The position numbers and the translations under genes are program-made. The notes under the pieces are model-generated. The model did no database searches and had not been told where the DNA came from. It was given only the letters and a program-made list of their open reading frames with translations. This document shows positions 1,472-11,582 of a stretch of DNA of 12,392 nucleotides, piece by piece; the stretch's first letter is position 1; every line of letters starts with the position of its first letter. Source of the stretch: an uncultured bacterium (GTDB lineage Bacteria > Zixibacteria > MSB-5A5 > UBA10806); the NCBI GenBank assembly GCA_965541585.1, contig CBEUCH010000030.1:1-12392 (forward strand), read 5' to 3'.

Positions 1472-2254
1472 TCAGCTCCCGAATGCAACCCCTATTACGA
1501 TGGTATCGTTAAGCCTGCTCACCGAATTGTATGACACAACCAATGTAATCGCTTTATAAGATAAATCAAGCCGTCCGAAGAAAACATTAGGACGATTCAG
1601 AAGACCTATCTGAATATCGATGGCATCCGAGATATCGATATATTGACCGAAAAGCCATCTGTTTCTATTGCTCTGAACCCTCTTCACGCTCGCGAATAGC
1701 TGGATGCCATTATTGAAAATACGGGATATGCAAGCCCAGGGTTTTGTACCTTTGCCGCCGAAAGTTTCATAATCACTCTTGAGATTAATACCGGATAAAC
1801 CCATAATACCAGTGAACCCCTGATATTTATATGAAAACCTGATACTCAGATCTGCTGAAGAATAATCCCCTGCCTGACCGAAGTCCTCCGTTTGAAGATT
1901 TCCGCTGGCGGCGGAGGAAATAGATTCGGTTATCCTGATCGCAGAGCCGAACGAATATGTATATCTTTTGTAATAGCCGTCCAGCCCGTAGGACCCAAAT
2001 TGGCCGAACAGGCCTGCCCGGCCAATTCCATACCTGACGATGGCATAATTCCAGTCTAACGAGCTGATTCCGTAAGGTTTCGCATGCAGGAATGTCGCCT
2101 CCGGGCCTCTTCGACAAAGCCTGGATGGTTCCAGATTGATGACCCTCGACGAATCCCCGGGAATATCGAATTGCCATAATATCATCTCGTCGAATCCTGA
2201 AGCCAGCAGGTTTGTAGAGTTCATCAAAGCGATTATAAACGCAATATATCTCAT
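1472..2254 (-). CDS. Hypothetical secreted protein, probable outer-membrane beta-barrel (PorV/PorP-like size class)
   Basis: N-terminal signal-like segment (MRYIAFIIALMNSTNLLA), many alternating amphipathic Gly/aromatic strands, and C-terminal ...IVIGVAFGS. It overlaps the upstream gene by 4 bp (ATGA). The family assignment is inference. Confidence 0.6.
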   Translation of the reverse strand: MRYIAFIIALMNSTNLLASGFDEMILWQFDIPGDSSRVINLEPSRLCRRGPEATFLHAKPYGISSLDWNYAIVRYGIGRAGLFGQFGSYGLDGYYKRYTYSFGSAIRITESISSAASGNLQTEDFGQAGDYSSADLSIRFSYKYQGFTGIMGLSGINLKSDYETFGGKGTKPWACISRIFNNGIQLFASVKRVQSNRNRWLFGQYIDISDAIDIQIGLLNRPNVFFGRLDLSYKAITLVVSYNSVSRLNDTIVIGVAFGS

Positions 2255-3111
2255 GGCGCCAGGACCACAGGTATGAATTTGCTACCGGTTTTTTGACCTG
2301 TCAGAAAAAATCCGATGATATACAGACCCGGAGACAACCGTTCGCCGTTGTGGTCACGACCGTCCCACTCAAAACTGCTAACTGCGGCATCGGACTCGTA
2401 ACGAAGATTTCTTATTTTCATAGCAGAGTCATCGAAAACATCAACCGTGATCTCAGTGCCTGCAGGAATGATGATATCAATTGCAAAATTATCATCAAAT
2501 CCGTCTCCGTCGGGAGTAATCAAGCGTGGTATAACGGAAATGCTGAGAACGCCTGCACCGCCTGCAGGGATGGATGAATTGGCTTGACCCGGTGTGGAAC
2601 CATCGGGATCGTAACAATCATGCCAACCGGAAAGATCATCGAAAAGATCATCTCTTTCAACAGAGCGGCCATCATCAGAAGGGGAATCCCAGGAAAAATA
2701 ATCGAGTAGATTACCTGAGGTGTCAGTCAGCGCGATTGATCCCTGGTTATTATTGAGGCCCATTCTAACATCGAAAGCAGGATAATTTTCGAATTCAGAA
2801 TCGCCCCATATGCCTGAGGAATCACCCCAATGTCCCTCAAAGGAATCGGAGCCATCCTCGGGCAATAGCTGACGGGCGAGTATTGCATAGGCACCGGCCT
2901 CCAGATACGAATAAGCCGGCAGGCGAGTCGTATCGGAGCCGGCAATCAACAGGAAATCGTGGAGATCCACAAGCGCATCCTGCCGGTTATAAACCTCCAC
3001 CCATTCGAGCCTGACCCTTCCCGACGGTTCGTTGGATAGGATTTCAGAGATTACAACCTGCCCGTAGGTATTTGCGCTCAACGAGAAGAATATGACAAGA
3101 GTCTTTACCAT
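2251..3111 (-). CDS. Secreted lamin-tail-domain (LTD) protein with C-terminal CHU_C/FlgD-Ig-like domain (type-B T9SS-CTD-like)
   Basis: Signal peptide; LTD motifs VVISEILSN, EWVEVYN, SVER and GSTPGQANS; C-terminal ITPDGDGFDDNF...VFD...WDGRDHNGERLSPGLYI. Confidence 0.8.
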   Translation of the reverse strand: MVKTLVIFFSLSANTYGQVVISEILSNEPSGRVRLEWVEVYNRQDALVDLHDFLLIAGSDTTRLPAYSYLEAGAYAILARQLLPEDGSDSFEGHWGDSSGIWGDSEFENYPAFDVRMGLNNNQGSIALTDTSGNLLDYFSWDSPSDDGRSVERDDLFDDLSGWHDCYDPDGSTPGQANSSIPAGGAGVLSISVIPRLITPDGDGFDDNFAIDIIIPAGTEITVDVFDDSAMKIRNLRYESDAAVSSFEWDGRDHNGERLSPGLYIIGFFLTGQKTGSKFIPVVLAP

Positions 3112-4637
3112 AAGCTTTCAACGACCAGGTACAACGGCCCCAGATCGCCTCTGTAGGAGTCATCCCATCTATAAGTAGCTTTTATGGAAAGAAACTTATC
3201 TATTCGCGTTCTTTCCTCGATAAAATAATCGAAATCTCCCGACAGGTTTCGTCGTGCTCTGCCGCTTATGGAAAAGCGAGACGTAACAGGCATCGAGACG
3301 TACAGGAAATACTTCGATTTATCTTTTTCGATTCGTTCCTGCTCCACCCACAAAGACATCAAAATTCCATATTCGATATGTTTCTGCAGGCTGGCGCCGA
3401 GTTCGACCAGGATGCGCTCGTTTTGTCTGTTATGTCGATCGGCATATCGAGCGATTGCCACCAGATCCGGTATTATCACAGGGCGGCGGGCCTGGATAGA
3501 ATTCTCGATGGCGATTGTCTGGTTGGGCGATTTCTTCCATATCTCGGTGGCGCCCGTAAACTCGATGCGTTCGACCGTGAAGCGTCTCTTAAGGAAAAGT
3601 CCGGTTTCACCTTTCTGGGGCTGCCTGAAAGACAGCTCGAATCGATCATCGCCGAAAGATTCGTAATCCGGGTGGGCAAATCCCGACGACTGCAAATTGA
3701 TAAAAGAATCATCATAATGCCAGAATCTGATATCATATCCGTATCTAAGGGCTTGAGCGCAAAAGCCTATCCCCGACTCTCCATAACCGAACTCCGATAT
3801 CAGTTTCCTGTCATCGCCTTGAATGAAAACGGATCCGGTTCCCAATGTCCTCGAAATATCATCAGATGATAATACCGTACCGGCGGCCGTCAAACCAACC
3901 GTAAAATCGCTAATTCCAATCGAAACGGAAGTGCCCACAAAACTCTTCTTAACATCATTATATTTCTTGATAGAATATATCAGGTTGAAATTATTTTTAT
4001 AGGATACAATCAGACCATTGTAATAGCTGTTATCCGGGAATAAGAACCCCTCCCCACGCCCCCGATCGGATTCATAAGATATCGGCCTGTAATCAAACCT
4101 TCCGATTCCCAGGCCGCAGCCTATACGGCTTGTGAAATTACCCAGCTTAATCCTGTAATCTCCGTGGGCAAAATTGATCGATCTGCGTTCAGTATTCCAG
4201 ACTCCATCCTCCTCTCGTCCCTTGAAGGCAATATCCATATCCCCGGTTGATCTTGTCAGCAGGAGGTATCCCTTATTCTTGCCTTCAAATATCTTTCTAC
4301 CGAATCTCACCCGCGCGGGCAATGCGAAGGATTTTGATGTCGCCGTTTCAGCTTTTAGAAATGATCGAGCATAGCTCTCAGAATAGATCGGGTTACTGAC
4401 CGTCTCTGTCGGAGGGGCTCCCATCGAGGAAACGATATATTCGACCGTATCGGATATCACTGCTCCTTCAGCCAGCTCCCTGTAAAGTTGATAGCTGTTA
4501 TAATCGAAATATCCAGCCCGAAAGAAAGATTCCCAATCCGATTCCGTCTGAATCTTATCGAACCACTGAGCAGTTGCCTGCGGCCCGATCAGTGTAAGAA
4601 TAATAAAGGTTTTTGAGATTAAAAAAAGTCGTCTCAC
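3105..4637 (-). CDS. Hypothetical secreted/outer-membrane protein resembling the barrel part of Bacteroidota 'helix-hairpin-helix domain' (ComEA-like) outer-membrane proteins
   Basis: GTG start and signal peptide ending ATA-Q. Motifs LGNFTSRIGCGLG, WHYDDSFIN and GETGLFL are recognised from memory of that family. The sequence is beta-rich with a terminal W and overlaps the next gene by 7 bp. No clear HhH motif is visible. Confidence 0.55.
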   Translation of the reverse strand: MRRLFLISKTFIILTLIGPQATAQWFDKIQTESDWESFFRAGYFDYNSYQLYRELAEGAVISDTVEYIVSSMGAPPTETVSNPIYSESYARSFLKAETATSKSFALPARVRFGRKIFEGKNKGYLLLTRSTGDMDIAFKGREEDGVWNTERRSINFAHGDYRIKLGNFTSRIGCGLGIGRFDYRPISYESDRGRGEGFLFPDNSYYNGLIVSYKNNFNLIYSIKKYNDVKKSFVGTSVSIGISDFTVGLTAAGTVLSSDDISRTLGTGSVFIQGDDRKLISEFGYGESGIGFCAQALRYGYDIRFWHYDDSFINLQSSGFAHPDYESFGDDRFELSFRQPQKGETGLFLKRRFTVERIEFTGATEIWKKSPNQTIAIENSIQARRPVIIPDLVAIARYADRHNRQNERILVELGASLQKHIEYGILMSLWVEQERIEKDKSKYFLYVSMPVTSRFSISGRARRNLSGDFDYFIEERTRIDKFLSIKATYRWDDSYRGDLGPLYLVVESLW

Positions 4638-4663
4638 CTCAAACCGTATTTATCCAGTTTGCG
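4615..4663. repeat. Direct repeat copy A of the activator-stop/next-gene-start junction
   Basis: Matches 6783-6831 at 46/49 positions. The core TCTCACCTCAAACCGTATTTATCCAGTTTGCG (4632-4663) is identical to 6800-6831. Confidence 0.95.
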
Positions 4664-4716
4664 GTAACTCGGACCGCCTTCTTTCTGTTGCCGCCGGCCT
4701 CGTTAAGTACTCTTAA
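4634..4716 (-). pseudogene. Relic 3' end (Fis HTH) of a sigma54 activator allele
   Basis: The minus strand translates LRVLNEAGGNRKKAVR, then a 25-nt deletion/frameshift, then YRKLDKYGLR*. The intact gene reads IRALDEANGNRKKAARILGIGERTLYRKLDKYGLR* at 6909-6802. Confidence 0.85.
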
Positions 4717-4736
4717 AGCCCTCGGAAAATCAATTC

Positions 4737-4769
4737 AAAAGAGGGGCTACCGAGGTTGCAGCCTCTTTG
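4737..4769 (-). terminator. Putative intrinsic terminator after the IPTL-CTERM gene
   Basis: Minus strand AAAGAGGCTGC-AACCTCG-GTAGCCCCTCTTTT: stem GGCUGC/GUAGCC, extendable with AAAGA/UCUUU, followed by a U-run, about 20 nt after the stop codon. Confidence 0.65.
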
Positions 4770-4790
4770 TTTATTTCTATGGGTGATCCT

Positions 4791-6563
4791 CTATGCGGCC
4801 TTGCTGATTACCGCCTTCCTTCTCCTCACAATCGCAACCGTCCCGATGGCCAACAGTAGCAGCGCCATAATGATCATCCCCCATTCGGAGAGGGTGGGGA
4901 TGTCTTGATGAGGATCGCAAACATCTCCGATACCATCACCGTTGGAATCGGCTTGATCTTCGTTATCAACATATGGACAATTGTCGCAGGCATCGCCATG
5001 GCTGTCATTATCCGAGTTCGTTTGATCAGGATTGTAAACATACGGACAGTTGTCTTCATCGAAGGGAATGCCATCCTCATCAATATCATAGATATCGCCT
5101 CCAAAAGCGCCCATATCGCTTCTTTCCTCACCTAAGCCCCAATCGCAATCGAGAATGTTATCCAGTATCGTAGGATCACCCGCATCGACACATGGGGAAT
5201 CATATGGATTTCCGCAGGTAGTGGACATCAGATGGAAATCGCCGTTTTCGAGATCACGGAAGAGGGGGTCAATATCTATATTCCCCTCGCCTTCCCAGCC
5301 CCCTCGAATATCGCTATATATAATTGCACTTGAAGATAATCCGTCAACATAAATCTCACGATTACCTTGCGCGTCGTTATACCAGATAATGGAATTAGCC
5401 ATTATCAAGCTGGAATACCACCTACAATATATTCCGCCGCCAATGTCGTTGGCCTTATTTTTGGCGATGGTATTGTTCTCGATCGTAGGATTGGATTGAC
5501 TAAAATAAACTCCGCCGCCGTAGTCCGCTGTGTTTCTCACAATCGTATTATTCTTTATTGTTGGAGTCGAATTATTAAGGCAGCATAATCCACCCCCATC
5601 GTGGGCTGAATTTTCAGCGATGAGATTATTAATGATCAACATACCACCGCTAAGAATACCACCGCCACGGTTGACGGCTGAATTCCCTATAACGATGTTG
5701 TTCATAATTGTGCCGTAAGCCGAAATCCCGCCGCCATCAAAGGCCGAATTTCCTATAATCATATTGTCCTTTATTGTTGCATTGCCGTATGTTCCGAATA
5801 TTCCGCCGCCCATAAAGTCGGCTGAATTGTAGGAGATCATATTGTTGATAATAAGACCGTTGCCATAAATCCCGCCGCCCATTCCGCCTTCATCTGGCGA
5901 CAAGGCTGAATTTCCGCTGATAGTATTGCCTGTGATTGTGCCATTGCCATAGATTCCACCACCCCGCCCCGAGGCTGAATTTCCGCTGATTCTATTATTG
6001 GTAATTGTAGGATAGGGATAATTTACACAATAAATTCCTCCCCCGTAATAGGCTACGTTTTCGTTGATAGTGTTATCGATGATCATTGCGTTTGAGTTAG
6101 AGCAATAGATTCCGCCACCCACCCCAATCCCATCAGATCTTGCCTCGTTTTCACGTATGACGTTATTGCTTATCAAAGGATCCGAACTATCGCAATAAAT
6201 CCCGCCGCCCTCGTCATCGTTATATCCACTCCGTATAGTAAAGCCAGTAATAACGGCGGTGCTGTCTTCGCCACTTTCAAACGTGACAACAGAGCCCGAA
6301 GAGTTGCCGTCAATGACTGTTGTCGAGACATATAAGATATCTCCTGTGGTAAGAAATAGCGAGCCGACTGTTATATTATGAGCGTCGAAATTAATATTCT
6401 CCACATATATCCCGGGGTGCACAAGCACCGTGTCGCCATCTATCGAAGCGTCTATACCTTGCTGGATAGTGGAATAATCATCGGGGATGTTGATGATGGT
6501 AGCTGAAACGGGCGAACGGGTAAAAACGACCAACGCAACAGCAAAAATGTATACTTTTTTCAC
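4791..6563 (-). CDS. Cell-surface protein: right-handed parallel beta-helix repeats + TSP type-3 Ca-binding repeats + IPTL-CTERM sorting signal
   Basis: Signal peptide; IPDDYSTIQQGID start; many NxIxxNSA..GGGI repeats; DEDGIPFDEDNCP/DNDSHGDACDNCP/DSNGDGIGDVCD repeats; C-terminal IPTLSEWG + TM helix + RRRK. GTG start with GGGAGG SD at 6574-6569. Confidence 0.9.
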   Translation of the reverse strand: MKKVYIFAVALVVFTRSPVSATIINIPDDYSTIQQGIDASIDGDTVLVHPGIYVENINFDAHNITVGSLFLTTGDILYVSTTVIDGNSSGSVVTFESGEDSTAVITGFTIRSGYNDDEGGGIYCDSSDPLISNNVIRENEARSDGIGVGGGIYCSNSNAMIIDNTINENVAYYGGGIYCVNYPYPTITNNRISGNSASGRGGGIYGNGTITGNTISGNSALSPDEGGMGGGIYGNGLIINNMISYNSADFMGGGIFGTYGNATIKDNMIIGNSAFDGGGISAYGTIMNNIVIGNSAVNRGGGILSGGMLIINNLIAENSAHDGGGLCCLNNSTPTIKNNTIVRNTADYGGGVYFSQSNPTIENNTIAKNKANDIGGGIYCRWYSSLIMANSIIWYNDAQGNREIYVDGLSSSAIIYSDIRGGWEGEGNIDIDPLFRDLENGDFHLMSTTCGNPYDSPCVDAGDPTILDNILDCDWGLGEERSDMGAFGGDIYDIDEDGIPFDEDNCPYVYNPDQTNSDNDSHGDACDNCPYVDNEDQADSNGDGIGDVCDPHQDIPTLSEWGMIIMALLLLAIGTVAIVRRRKAVISKAA

Positions 6564-6594
6564 ACAGTCCTCCCGCTCAATGGAGTCAATAATA

Positions 6595-6622
6595 ATAATA
6601 GGACATTCTCAGGGTTTGTCAA
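6595..6622 (-). promoter_or_regulatory. Putative sigma70 promoter of the IPTL-CTERM gene
   Basis: Minus strand TTGACA (6622-6617), 16 nt, TATTAT (6600-6595), about 30 nt upstream of the start codon. Confidence 0.6.
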
Positions 6623-6733
6623 GAGATTTCTGTTTTAGAGCTTCGCAGGGGAAAGAAATCGGGTCGTGCTCAAATATAGTGGCCTGGAGCCATGATTGCA
6701 AGGCTTTTTCGGGTGAAATAGGTTAGGCTACGC

Positions 6734-6805
6734 TCATTCTGAAGAGGGCATTATGGTGTTTTTTTCGAATATCATTAAAAAAGAGATCGAAAAAAGTCTT
6801 CTCAC
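6734..6805 (-). pseudogene. Relic 5' end of the 510-aa gene (MRRLFSIS..., 23 codons) overlapping the activator stop codon
   Basis: GTG AGA AGA CTT TTT TCG ATC TCT versus GTG AGA CGA CTT TTT TTA ATC TCA at 4637. It has the same GTGA overlap, and similarity ends after 8 codons. Confidence 0.75.
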
Positions 6806-6831
6806 CTCAAACCGTATTTATCCAGTTTGCG
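6783..6831. repeat. Direct repeat copy B of the activator-stop/next-gene-start junction
   Basis: 46/49 identical to 4615-4663, offset 2168 bp. Confidence 0.95.
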
Positions 6832-8235
6832 ATATAATGTTCTCTCGCCTATCCCCAGGATACGAGCCGCCTTCTTTCTATTGCCATTGGCTTCATCAAG
6901 CGCCCTAATCATAAGTTCTTTCTCCGCAGCTTCCATCTTGACGGGGCCGGATCTAAAACCCGCAGATTCTGCGAAGCCACCATTCGTAACCCTTACTCTC
7001 TCCATCTCCCTTTCAATCAGCCGCCGCAGGGAACTGACTTCGCCGGTAAGGGCCATTATTGCCTGCAACATAATTTGATGCTCTGCGGCTTCGGAGGTCC
7101 TCCCCGTTACTACCGGAAGCAACTCGGAACTGGGGCGTCTCTCCCGGACATATTGTTCGAAATCCGACGTCCTTATCCGACCTGACGCGCTGGTGACCGA
7201 AAATGAATCGATGACATTCTTCAACTCTCGCACATTGCCGGGCCATTCGTAGCGATAGAATAAACGCAGCGCCCCGGGTTCAATCGAGAGATTATCGGTT
7301 TTCAGTTCTTTTTTCCTCCGTGCCAGAAAATGAAATGCCAGAGGAGAGACGTCCGGTTTCCTGAGGCTCAGAGCGGGTAAATCTATTGTAACAACGCTTA
7401 AACGGTAATAGAGGTCATCGCGGAAACGGCCGGAGGCAACTTCATCCTGCAGGACCTTATTTGTGGCCGCCAGCAGCCTAAAATCGGCGTTTATCTGAAC
7501 GTTACCCCCGACCCGGGTGAAACTGCGCTGTTCGAGAACCCTCAAGAGTTTGGCTTGAATCTCAAGCGGTATATCGCCGATCTCATCTAAGAATATTATG
7601 CCGTCCGAGGCCTGTTCAAAAGCCCCGATTCTTCTGGAAGTCGCTCCCGTAAAAGCCCCTCTCTCATGGCCGAATAATTCGGATTCGATGATTCCGGGAG
7701 CCAGGGCGGCGACATTTACCGCTATAAACGGGTTACCGGATTGTCCCGATCCCGAATGGATGGCCCTGGCGATGATTTCCTTGCCTGTTCCCGACGGCCC
7801 CGTAATGAGAACATTGACATCGGATGATGCCACTTTCTTTACGGTTCCGGCGGCCTTGATAAGCTCGGCCGAACGGCCTATTATCCCGCACGATCCGAGG
7901 AGCTTCCTATCTCGAACGATCTTCTCAAAAGCCTCCACCACATCCACAGCTTCAACCGGCCAGAATAATTCTTTATCGCAGCTTAAATCCTCGGTAATTC
8001 CGATTGCAGGCATTATAACCACTGCTATAATCGATGGTTTCTCAACATAGGCACGTTCTATAAGCTTCAACGGTCTCATCCCGGAACGCAGATCGAAAAT
8101 TATCCCGTCCGGTTCAGTCTCGTTCAAGACCGAGGCCAGCCTGATTTCATCGGTAAAACTTTGAGCTTCCCGTCCGGGAAGAGATTTCAGCAATTGGTCC
8201 GAAAATGACAGGTCATGCGAAAACAGATAAATCAT
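6802..8235 (-). CDS. Sigma54-dependent Fis-family transcriptional activator (bEBP) with atypical receiver-like N-terminus
   Basis: Walker A GPSGTGKE, ESELFGHERGAFTGA, Walker B IFLDEIG, RDDLYYRL, WPGNVREL, and C-terminal Fis HTH GNRKKAARILGIGERTLYRKL. It overlaps rnr by 4 bp. Confidence 0.93.
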   Translation of the reverse strand: MIYLFSHDLSFSDQLLKSLPGREAQSFTDEIRLASVLNETEPDGIIFDLRSGMRPLKLIERAYVEKPSIIAVVIMPAIGITEDLSCDKELFWPVEAVDVVEAFEKIVRDRKLLGSCGIIGRSAELIKAAGTVKKVASSDVNVLITGPSGTGKEIIARAIHSGSGQSGNPFIAVNVAALAPGIIESELFGHERGAFTGATSRRIGAFEQASDGIIFLDEIGDIPLEIQAKLLRVLEQRSFTRVGGNVQINADFRLLAATNKVLQDEVASGRFRDDLYYRLSVVTIDLPALSLRKPDVSPLAFHFLARRKKELKTDNLSIEPGALRLFYRYEWPGNVRELKNVIDSFSVTSASGRIRTSDFEQYVRERRPSSELLPVVTGRTSEAAEHQIMLQAIMALTGEVSSLRRLIEREMERVRVTNGGFAESAGFRSGPVKMEAAEKELMIRALDEANGNRKKAARILGIGERTLYRKLDKYGLR

Positions 8236-10427: not shown

Positions 10428-10532
10428 GCCAAAACTGCCATTTTGGCAGGAGCTATTTTCTGAGCCAAAATAGATATGTATGATGTGTTGGAATAAATTC
10501 TCCAATTGACCACAGGGGAATATAATAAAAGG

Positions 10533-10563
10533 AATTAACTTGACAAAAACATCTATATTTGCT
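10533..10563 (+). repeat. 31-bp promoter-containing repeat, copy 1
   Basis: AATTAACTTGACAAAAACATCTATATTTGCT, identical to 11451-11481; contains TTGACA at 10540-10545. Confidence 0.9.
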
Positions 10564-10652
10564 TAGATAAAGTGGATTACGTCTACAAAAGCTGGCATCT
10601 GGTTGCGAAGCGAGAATAATCTATAAGTTTTAACCTTAACTGAGGAGTGATC

Positions 10653-11213: not shown

Positions 11214-11450
11214 AAACAGCTTAGCTCAAAATCAGGAGCATCATACAACAAAACAAAATCACAGTTCAATATTCTCAGAGATACGACTGAAGATGTTGAG
11301 AATATTATTTTGGGCGATTTCACTGACACTATAAACCTTTGCTAAAAACTACTCCATCGACTGGTATGTCATCGCCTCCTGCTGCGGGCATGAGACACCG
11401 GCGAACTATGGGGCCGACGTCACTAAGATTATTGCGTAGCCATCAGAAGC

Positions 11451-11486
11451 AATTAACTTGACAAAAACATCTATATTTGCTAATGT
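11451..11486 (+). promoter_or_regulatory. 31-bp repeat copy 2, putative sigma70 promoter with extended -10
   Basis: TTGACA (11458-11463), 17 nt, TAATGT (11481-11486) preceded by TGC. Confidence 0.7.
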
Positions 11487-11582
11487 TAATTAGTCAATGT
11501 CTTCATATAGCCGTGAGGTGGCTGTTGTGCGAGAATAAAAACTCATACGTATGGTTAAAGTATTAAATAAAAAGGAGCGCTT

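Follow-up and report, generated by a model that had tools for sequence, protein, structure and literature searches.

Cassettes that carry cargo between copies of a duplicated gene tail and encode no integrase are already known as a general layout. The closest described systems are the cis-mobilizable elements (CIMEs), with their tandem accretion at gene 3' ends (PMC5704250), and the integrase-less Dehalococcoides islands with their repeat at ssrA (PMC3146451). They resemble a 2.2-kb unit in the window, the whole 12,392-nt stretch of DNA analysed here, in that integrase-less cassettes, likely decayed integrase elements, lie between direct repeats of a gene 3' end, leave the target intact and stack in tandem. 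They differ in the target, which is here the junction of a sigma-54 activator gene and p510, and in the repeat, which here spans ~126 bp and runs into the next gene, compared with 20 bp at ssrA. The arms of the present unit are, furthermore, mosaic and homogenised with host alleles, and its att sites and helper integrase are putative.

Campbell-type insertion-duplication, in which a circle with host sequence integrates by a single crossover, is known mainly as a laboratory method. It yields exactly the layout of the window, and gap repair can place host alleles in both copies, whereas here it would concern cassettes that occur in nature as a family whose ends are conserved. Other elements, namely e14 and phage 21, bring icd a long replacement 3' end. 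Their integration in this E. coli gene (PMC12540744) is similar in that a long duplicate of the 3' end of a protein-coding gene flanks the insert, but they bring an integrase and a functional tail, whereas the spare copy in the window looks foreign and no integrase accompanies it. Integrase-independent spread at a fixed site, donor-type sequence adjoining the insert and surface-related cargo varying by lineage are shared with pneumococcal Tn1207.1/Tn916 insertions imported by interspecies homologous recombination (PMC8321556) and with replacement flexible genomic islands (PMC4033161); the homologous arms there comprise hundreds to thousands of bases of flanking gene, whereas here a ~50-nt foreign tract lies inside the duplicated junction and cassettes are added in tandem. 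A literature search found no publication on the activator/p510 site, although the gene might be listed among the targets tabulated in island databases (TIGER/Islander).

The duplicated junction and its flanking genes

The 3' end of the activator gene is the target of the cassette (Table 1). A profile search of the window proteins assigned PF00158 and HTH_8 domains to the activator, and p510, matched in 51/61 genomes, is the first gene of a downstream run that continues with an LTD/FlgD-Ig gene, a 260-aa gene and a dGTPase. The Atlas look-alikes of p510 are hypothetical proteins, with HHH_3 in 15% of one cluster.

Table 1. Features of the occupied activator/p510 junction (window positions; L044 is a related locus with two cassettes)
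Feature	Position	Strand	Evidence or remark
p510, conserved gene of unknown function, 510 aa, intact	3105..4637	-	no Pfam/NCBIfam match
Spare junction copy, 25-nt deletion between 4667 and 4666	4615..4715	-	first 49 nt (4715-4667) L044-like; window-type from core on
Identical core, 32 bp (= 6800-6831)	4632..4663	.	overlaps imperfect 11-8-11 inverted repeat at 4636-4665
RE, conserved cassette end, 29 bp	4716..4744	-	-35 box and spacer of predicted integrase promoter
Terminator-like hairpin of cargo module	4745..4763	-	common to C3 paralogues
Cargo, predicted surface protein, 590 aa	4791..6563	-	right-handed Beta_helix, TSP_3 repeats, IPTL-CTERM (domain scans)
Promoter-like site of the cargo itself	6595..6622	-	11/12 consensus
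LE, conserved cassette end, ~155 bp	6628..6782	-	134/152 and 133/145 identical to two L044 cassette ends
LE 3' part, portable predicted sigma-70 promoter and leader	-35 at 6701-6696, -10 at 6678-6673	-	promoter-like site
Functional junction copy: activator codons 443-477, GTGA overlap, 7 codons of p510 start	6783..6908	-	alignment
Activator, sigma-54-dependent, Fis-type HTH, 477 aa, intact	6802..8235	-	PF00158 E 5.9e-66, PF02954 E 8.5e-15; orthologue beside p510 in relatives

The first-pass annotation of this DNA had described a junction repeated around a self-contained unit of promoter, IPTL-CTERM beta-helix gene and terminator, with both flanking genes intact; each of these points held, and the repeat proved longer (~126 bp) than the exact core then noted. 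A direct repeat of 52 nt (4615-4666 and 6783-6834; 92% identical, spacing 2168 bp) resumes beyond the 25-nt deletion, where 4674-4707 aligns with 6867-6900, and the full duplicated segment measures 126 bp (6783-6908) versus 101 bp (4615-4715). The search for further copies of the core that the annotation had suggested found none besides these two: blastn (E 2.5e-15) placed the core at this locus alone in the genome of 3.52 Mb. The inverted repeat forms 9/11 pairs in the spare copy, a degree of pairing expected by chance in ~0.5% for such a stretch, and native junctions reach only 7-8/11 pairs (hand count from the alignment). Two features of the core count against homologous recombination: its 11-8-11 inverted repeat has the layout of tyrosine-recombinase core sites, and a perfect match of this length is short for RecA.

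No integrase or transposase family match occurred among the 9 window proteins scanned. Integration and transfer genes are absent from the 2.2-kb unit, and neither its single cargo ORF nor the five in the L044 cassettes has a recombinase-family match. In comparison with an autonomous prophage, IME or ICE, the unit lacks its own integrase in family scans; in comparison with an insertion sequence or composite transposon, it lacks a transposase, its spare copy is probably no copy of the host's own tail, and no terminal inverted repeat was present among the 25 longest of 47 inverted repeats.

Cassette ends, cargo and occupancy in relatives

The activator/p510 junction is empty at 19 distinct related loci, which shows the window unit to be an insertion at a site empty in most relatives and bears out the earlier proposal of an ancestral operon running from the activator directly to p510. 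Occupied junctions were found in the window, in L044 (twice, in tandem) and in L033/G001, each with different cargo, as expected of the exchangeable slot that had been postulated. The three occupied loci are all related at genus level (activator 82-83% aa identity to the window), and 3/4 such genomes are occupied. L044 lies on an independent contig with the window's ends and fusion point and other cargo; its tandem array has constant ends and no integrase, and a 50-nt remnant recurs inside both of its cassettes. Two occupied loci are fully assembled, the other end of the G001/L033 cassette being cut off by the contig end. The G001 layout differs, passing from a 110-nt p510 stub through an antisense ORF to the LE promoter part only, and this counts against homologous recombination. 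G013, which has no activator beside p510 but an N-run at the junction, was left out. In G053 and G060, ~5 kb lie between activator and p510, and the intervening ORFs of G060 look housekeeping-type by ORF listing alone. The window unit has two conserved ends and a spare arm resembling another lineage; across the occupied loci the cargo varies, and cassettes can stack in tandem.

Copies related to LE occur in G001, G002 and contig C9 of G000, and weakly in C26 of G000. At RE, the predicted promoter breaks off before its -10 box and continues into activator codon 443; this fusion point is identical in 3/3 copies that follow an RE. RE is 26/29 and 27/29 identical to the L044 ends, 26/29 to G000 C26 and 23/29 to the DNA preceding an integrase in G002, where it directly precedes an intact PF00589 tyrosine integrase beside tRNA-Arg. 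At a second cassette site, in G000 and G001, RE is followed by an integrase-like stub of 16 codons, whose score was reached by 5 (G000) and 1 (G001) of 2000 shuffles. Rfam scans of 5 sources found only a tRNA, which led to the rejection of an ncRNA next to RE. Because this end matches a predicted integrase promoter, the cassette does show integrase traces, and its earlier description as integrase-free applies to the lack of integrase and transposase matches and not to its ends. The end pieces of the slot are likely remains of a lost tyrosine-integrase element.

The cargo belongs to a set of 31 ORFs whose tails are IPTL-like and to a set of 32 paralogous ORFs, itself included, at E<1e-20 (best paralogue 51%); its TSP3 part matches thrombospondin PDB chains. 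Its upstream region is common to paralogues on C3, C8, C15, C16 and C22, and the ends of the cargo module match the flanks of paralogues. The predicted promoter of the cargo and the coding-sequence nature of the repeats argue against an integron cassette.

Parent elements with an integrase at the junction were found neither in 24 order-level genomes and 13 metagenome loci nor, by the junction pattern, in 285 class-level genomes. That pattern matched 44/285 of the latter, with two matches in G000 and in three others (G033, G262, G267); of these three, G033 was inspected, and its second match is a full activator on another contig. Junction and LE patterns had 0 matches in viral contigs and none in phages or plasmids. 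The RE pattern matched 8 loci in genome contigs, two of them the G001 and G002 sites; the other six look like chance, with no integrase-like ORF start nearby. A recombinase acting in trans, also suggested by the annotation, was sought and no cognate was found: G000 (98% complete) has 6 PF00589 matches, none a close relative of the RE-linked integrase of G002 (best 24%), and 0 matches to the serine recombinase families PF00239 and PF07508. The G002 integrase itself has matches in 7/285 class genomes at E<=1e-45.

Neither a cassette circle nor an excision junction was found. The precise excision and switching envisaged by the annotation gained no support in run X1, since the empty-site joint was absent among the 12 joints listed, although this comparison of contigs is a weak test and no evidence against excision. 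One X1 contig joins 4741 to 6628 with unknown letters between and has the same frame boundaries. Six runs were listed, as contigs only and with no RNA run among them, and the best share of the window stretch was 0.16.

Allele mosaic and position of the crossover

Upstream, the activators of the window and L044 differ at 256/1324 nt. The first 49 nt of the spare arm show 3 differences from the L044 activator versus 15 from the window's own, and the informative sites side with the L044 activator in 12 cases and with the window's own in 0. At the core-gene rate, 3 or fewer differences have P=0.009. The same 49 nt are conserved among the functional genes of L044, G001 and G002 (4-5 differences), and because 3/49 is unremarkable at that rate (P=0.30), the roles could be reversed, with a native spare arm and a foreign functional tail. 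The resemblance to L044 (3 versus 15 differences) suggests that the spare arm likely travels with the cassette and, therefore, that the crossover probably lies in or adjoining the identical core, which would represent a crossover or conversion tract. The single crossover in the core claimed by the annotation is accordingly retained as to position, whereas the attL/attR-like layout is revised, the repeat being a ~126-bp junction copy borne by the element instead of an att core of 32 bp. Codon 443 was also considered as a Xer-like site, but the crossover maps further downstream, and this candidate was rejected.

To the right of the palindrome centre, the window copies agree at tail positions 99, 102, 115 and 116; the two copies borne by the L044 cassettes have other alleles at 99, 115 and 116, and one of them also at 102. 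Gap repair or conversion would equalise such alleles, whereas precise site-specific exchange would not. Shared alleles could also follow conversion after site-specific integration, which counts against homologous recombination. Among the features of a cassette spread by homologous recombination, donor-type sequence beside the insert and window-type alleles from the core on were both found. Identity between the window and L044 reaches 88-92% in LE, 26-27/29 in RE and 46/49 in the spare arm (against the L044 activator), compared with 81% in coding genes.

Origin of the slot and its routes of spread

The explanation we favour, at about even chances, is that the 2.2-kb unit descends from an integrative element, has no integrase of its own and now spreads by homologous recombination. 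An ancestral element, ordered as LE promoter, cargo, integrase promoter and integrase, would have integrated at the activator 3' end, and a deletion would then have removed the integrase and joined the -35 box and spacer of its promoter to the displaced tail at codon 443, so that long direct repeats remained. Donor DNA with the cassette frame, either a popped-out circle or a linear piece, would be taken up and recombine at the conserved core, the one place where a long stretch is nearly identical; the uptake genes ComEC and DprA are present. The ~126-bp junction copy borne by the cassette would supply the homology for entry and exchange, and recombination at the conserved core would keep both flanking genes intact. 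Cargo may be swapped inside the frame from a genus pool of secreted and IPTL-CTERM genes.

A classical CIME or satellite with functional att sites is a possible but doubtful alternative, in which a tyrosine integrase in trans, from a helper element outside the assembly or XerC/D, would act at the palindromic core and stack cassettes in tandem, the extra homology being captured host DNA that was later partly homogenised. The coincidence of the 11-8-11 quasi-palindrome with the identical core, the constant ends of the L044 array, the likely integrase-element origin of RE and the PF00589 matches in G000 all fit this account, and integration in trans is the accepted route to such arrays (PMC5704250, PMC3146451). 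Against it, the site has no integrase in the window or L044, nor in the part of L033 that is assembled, the RE-linked integrase has no close relative in G000, junction and LE patterns are unmatched in viral contigs, phages and plasmids, and host homology extends on both sides of the putative crossover with alleles shared across it. Accretion beside an autonomous ICE or IME was not seen, the L044 array consisting of two cassettes and the G001 cassette running into the contig end.

It is unlikely that one ancient integration in the genus ancestor left a vertically inherited, fixed frame in which the cargo alone was swapped, through shared promoter and terminator modules or whole-locus replacement via the flanking genes, with pop-out in G002 and unequal crossing-over in L044. 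The restriction of occupied loci to genus-level relatives, most of which are occupied, the frame boundaries of the X1 contig, the paralogue-like ends of the cargo module and the remnant common to both L044 cassettes would agree with such a history, but the non-coding ends of the window and L044 are closer than their coding genes, which vertical descent can hardly explain without selection on all of them. An assembly artefact, or the residue of a larger tandem duplication with independent gene insertion, is highly improbable: a contig of only 12.4 kb and the failure to find a run with most of the stretch speak for it, but the two copies differ by substitutions and the 25-nt deletion, and the independent L044 contig with its matching ends and fusion point largely refutes this reading.

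Beyond the favoured homologous-recombination origin of this unit, at least three other genes of the genome (the pepF, yjbQ and GAF sites) carry tail duplications around cargo absent from relatives. Tail duplications in unrelated genes of this genome measure 51-187 bp and no integrase-like ORF is evident there, which makes a general route more likely than a separate integrase for each site. Tentatively, and with rather low confidence, we suggest a genus-wide, recombinase-free cassette family whose members would be bounded by a portable promoter on one side and a broken integrase promoter on the other. Each would bring along a ~126-bp core-gene junction copy that serves as its homing address, and the cassettes would spread between species by homologous recombination and vary surface proteins by stacking. 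If this is true, the other duplicated gene tails in the genome would be further addresses of one gene-gain route.

How most islands without integrase or relaxase move is an open question, as stated for genomic islands in general (10.64898/2026.01.13.699239), and the defined ends and core of this cassette make RecA versus an integrase in trans directly testable. Island finders keyed to integrases would likely miss such slots. The locus provides a well-bounded natural case of an integrative element that may have lost its integrase but left behind a reusable, gene-preserving slot for surface-protein genes.

Duplicated junction and its empty counterparts

The insertion of a surface-protein cassette at a duplicated gene junction is real. 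The sigma-54-dependent activator gene and the 510-aa gene (p510) on either side of the insert are both intact, and the direct repeat covers 52 nt at 92% identity, with copies 2168 bp apart and an exact 32-nt core of which a genome-wide search returned no further copy. The first-pass annotation had spacing, core and flanking genes right, but the homology exceeds what it gave, since the duplicated segment spans 126 bp in the functional and 101 bp in the spare copy, where the left copy resumes beyond a 25-nt deletion and reaches activator codon 443. The cargo product is a 590-aa beta-helix/TSP3/IPTL-CTERM protein. Neither p510 nor the 260-aa protein has a Pfam or NCBIfam match, and p510 look-alikes are most frequent in Candidatus Zixiibacteriota. 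Past the cassette terminator, no promoter-like site was among those listed on the p510 strand (4745-4640).

Of the 61 related genomes compared, 51 have a match to p510, and the p510, LTD/FlgD-Ig and 260-aa genes (window 1472-4637) come after the activator in most relatives. The junction test comprised 25 loci (12 genomic, 13 metagenomic); the activator-end pattern was matched in 24 of them, three being duplicates. p510 directly overlaps the activator stop at 19 distinct loci, and two junctions are occupied (L033, the site in genus-level relative G001, and L044). At L049 the pattern was unmatched, yet activator and p510 are adjacent. Outside the test stood L007, which a contig end truncates, L010, where an N-run occurs, and 16 loci belonging to other families; in 13 of these 16 the activator falls inside the 1.5-kb flank. 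Among the four genus-level genomes G002 is the sole empty one. Given the 19 distinct empty junctions, the ancestral state is an empty junction, bearing out the operon running from activator to p510 that had been postulated.

Cargo variation and conserved cassette ends

Different cargo does occur at this site in related genomes, as the first proposal of an exchangeable slot would have it; any excision or switching of the cassette is putative. At L044, where the activator is 83% identical, two cassettes stand in tandem and the activator tail is present three times; one cassette carries a beta-helix gene, a PKD gene and a 147-aa gene, the other a PQQ-repeat IPTL-CTERM gene and a 72-aa ORF. In G001 the activator gives way to a p510 stub of 110 nt, then to an antisense ORF and, at the contig end, a cassette promoter. 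Sequencing run X1 represents a close relative (e.g., 72 differences in 1573 nt on the activator side), and one contig of it, which joins 4741 to 6628 across a stretch of unknown letters, fits other cargo within the same frame.

The activator-side cassette end (LE) is identical to the two L044 ends at 134/152 and 133/145 positions. A predicted sigma-70 promoter and leader make up its 3' part, which also precedes accessory genes at other sites in the window's genome (G000), G001 and G002. The p510-side end (RE) matches its L044 counterparts at 26/29 and 27/29, with an identical fusion point to codon 443. Of the 14 family genomes, 3 carry the RE pattern (at most two mismatches), and these all belong to the window's genus. 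In G002 it lies directly 5' of an intact 345-aa PF00589 integrase adjoining tRNA-Arg(CCT), where it forms the -35 box plus spacer of the predicted integrase promoter; the start codon falls 6 nt past the predicted -10 box, so the integrase mRNA is likely leaderless. The counterpart in G013 (L116) is broken and 71% identical.

A second cassette site, missing from G002 and most family loci, has an LE-type promoter and cargo that differs between G000 and G001; no long host duplication was seen there. It retains the full predicted integrase promoter, followed by a 16-codon stub, and these stubs resemble integrase N-termini (score reached by 5 and 1 of 2000 shuffles). Together with RE before the intact G002 integrase, they suggest that the cassettes descend from an integrase element. 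The promoter-like site and terminator of the cargo are common to paralogues elsewhere in the genome, and hence the cargo probably came into the frame as one module. In G000 an IPTL-CTERM-like tail is present on 31 ORFs, and the beta-helix paralogues number 32, the cargo itself counted.

Accessory genes in G000 are flanked by many short direct repeats. A near-identical pair of stretches carrying part of the LE motif adjoins short repeated motifs and an apparent fragment of a tRNA 3' end; the two stretches are probably ends of decayed tRNA-targeted elements. Conserved across family loci is a small Cys-rich ORF, unlisted and likely a zinc ribbon, just upstream of a DUF72 gene.

Coordinates of features in the window and in related genomes
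Feature	Location	Repeat length	Source
p510	window 3105-4637 (-)
Cargo gene	window 4791-6563 (-)
Activator	window 6802-8235 (-)
Core	window 4632-4663 / 6800-6831	32 nt
Spare / functional copy	window 4615-4715 / 6783-6908
RE	window 4716-4744
LE	window 6628-6782
TTGACA-box repeat	window 10529-10587 / 11447-11505
Second cassette site	G000 C26:5005-7411 (L079); G001 C98 (L077)
Integrase	G002 C113:9683-10720 (L059/L076)
Pair with partial LE motif	G000 C21:1500-2100, C22:5350-6000
Cys-rich ORF	G000 C26 ~7566-7690 (L058)
DprA-family matches above cut-off (three)	G000 C4:186036, C6:149480, C10:84205
pepF tail duplication	G000 C2:129289/131689	51 bp	genome scan
Nitroreductase tail duplications	G000 C6:61231/62235/62419	96 and 62 bp	genome scan
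yjbQ tail duplication	G000 C9:95605/98633	56 bp	genome scan
GAF gene tail duplication	G000 C17:38445/43069	187 bp	genome scan

Origin of the spare arm and route of acquisition

Between the activators of the window and L044, 256 of 1324 nt upstream of the repeat are different. Over its first 49 nt the spare copy departs from the L044 activator at 3 sites and from the window's own at 15, with informative sites there divided 12:0 for L044, and one allele is common to all three RE-following copies and missing from the four functional genes. Between the core and tail position ~116, the two window copies have the alleles at 99, 102, 115 and 116 in common, beyond which the functional copy is L044-cassette-like. 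Judging from these alleles, the spare arm probably moves together with the cassette, and an exchange or conversion tract likely spans the conserved core, in agreement with the crossover in the core envisaged earlier. However, the other three functional genes also conserve this 49-nt segment (4-5 differences), and the probability of 3/49 differences is 0.30 at that segment's rate versus 0.009 at the core-gene rate.

Spread of the cassette via homologous recombination, to which we give an even chance, is favoured by host homology flanking the crossover on both sides, with alleles equalised across it, and by the encoded ComEC and DprA. The tail duplications around cargo at other genes of G000 also count for it: the pepF, nitroreductase, yjbQ and GAF sites have no evident integrase-like ORF in their cargo. 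LE/RE profiles found no ends at these other sites. Checked in five relatives per gene, cargo is missing in four for pepF and two for GAF, and clearly missing in two for yjbQ, the remaining three having other or unmatched neighbours. The M20 peptidase duplication (46 bp) is of another kind, as its copies are 24 kb apart and core genes separate them. That an integrase acting in trans integrates the cassettes seems unlikely to us, although an imperfect inverted repeat of 11-8-11 layout falls on the core (9/11 in the spare copy, against a background of 0.00068 per start) and integrase-driven tandem accretion is the accepted route (PMC5704250, PMC3146451); G000 yielded no cognate integrase, the best of six PF00589 matches being 24% identical to the G002 enzyme, and no serine recombinases were found in it. 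A fixed inherited frame with exchange of cargo appears improbable.

Elsewhere in the window, a 188-aa gene upstream of rnr lies between two copies of a promoter-like stretch that contains a TTGACA box. These copies are 918 bp apart and match over 59 nt at 80% identity (35 nt at 97%); their region differs in relatives and may thus be another variable slot.

Relation to known systems

The cassettes of the window and L044 work like arrays of cis-mobilizable elements (CIMEs); with att function putative and no autonomous neighbour found, they are not classed as CIMEs. The window cassette is also similar to cassettes imported through homologous recombination, as described in PMC8321556 and PMC4033161. 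No published account of the activator/p510 target was found in the literature searched, which lay outside supplements and island databases. The activator/p510 cassette is a fresh variant of an already known layout.
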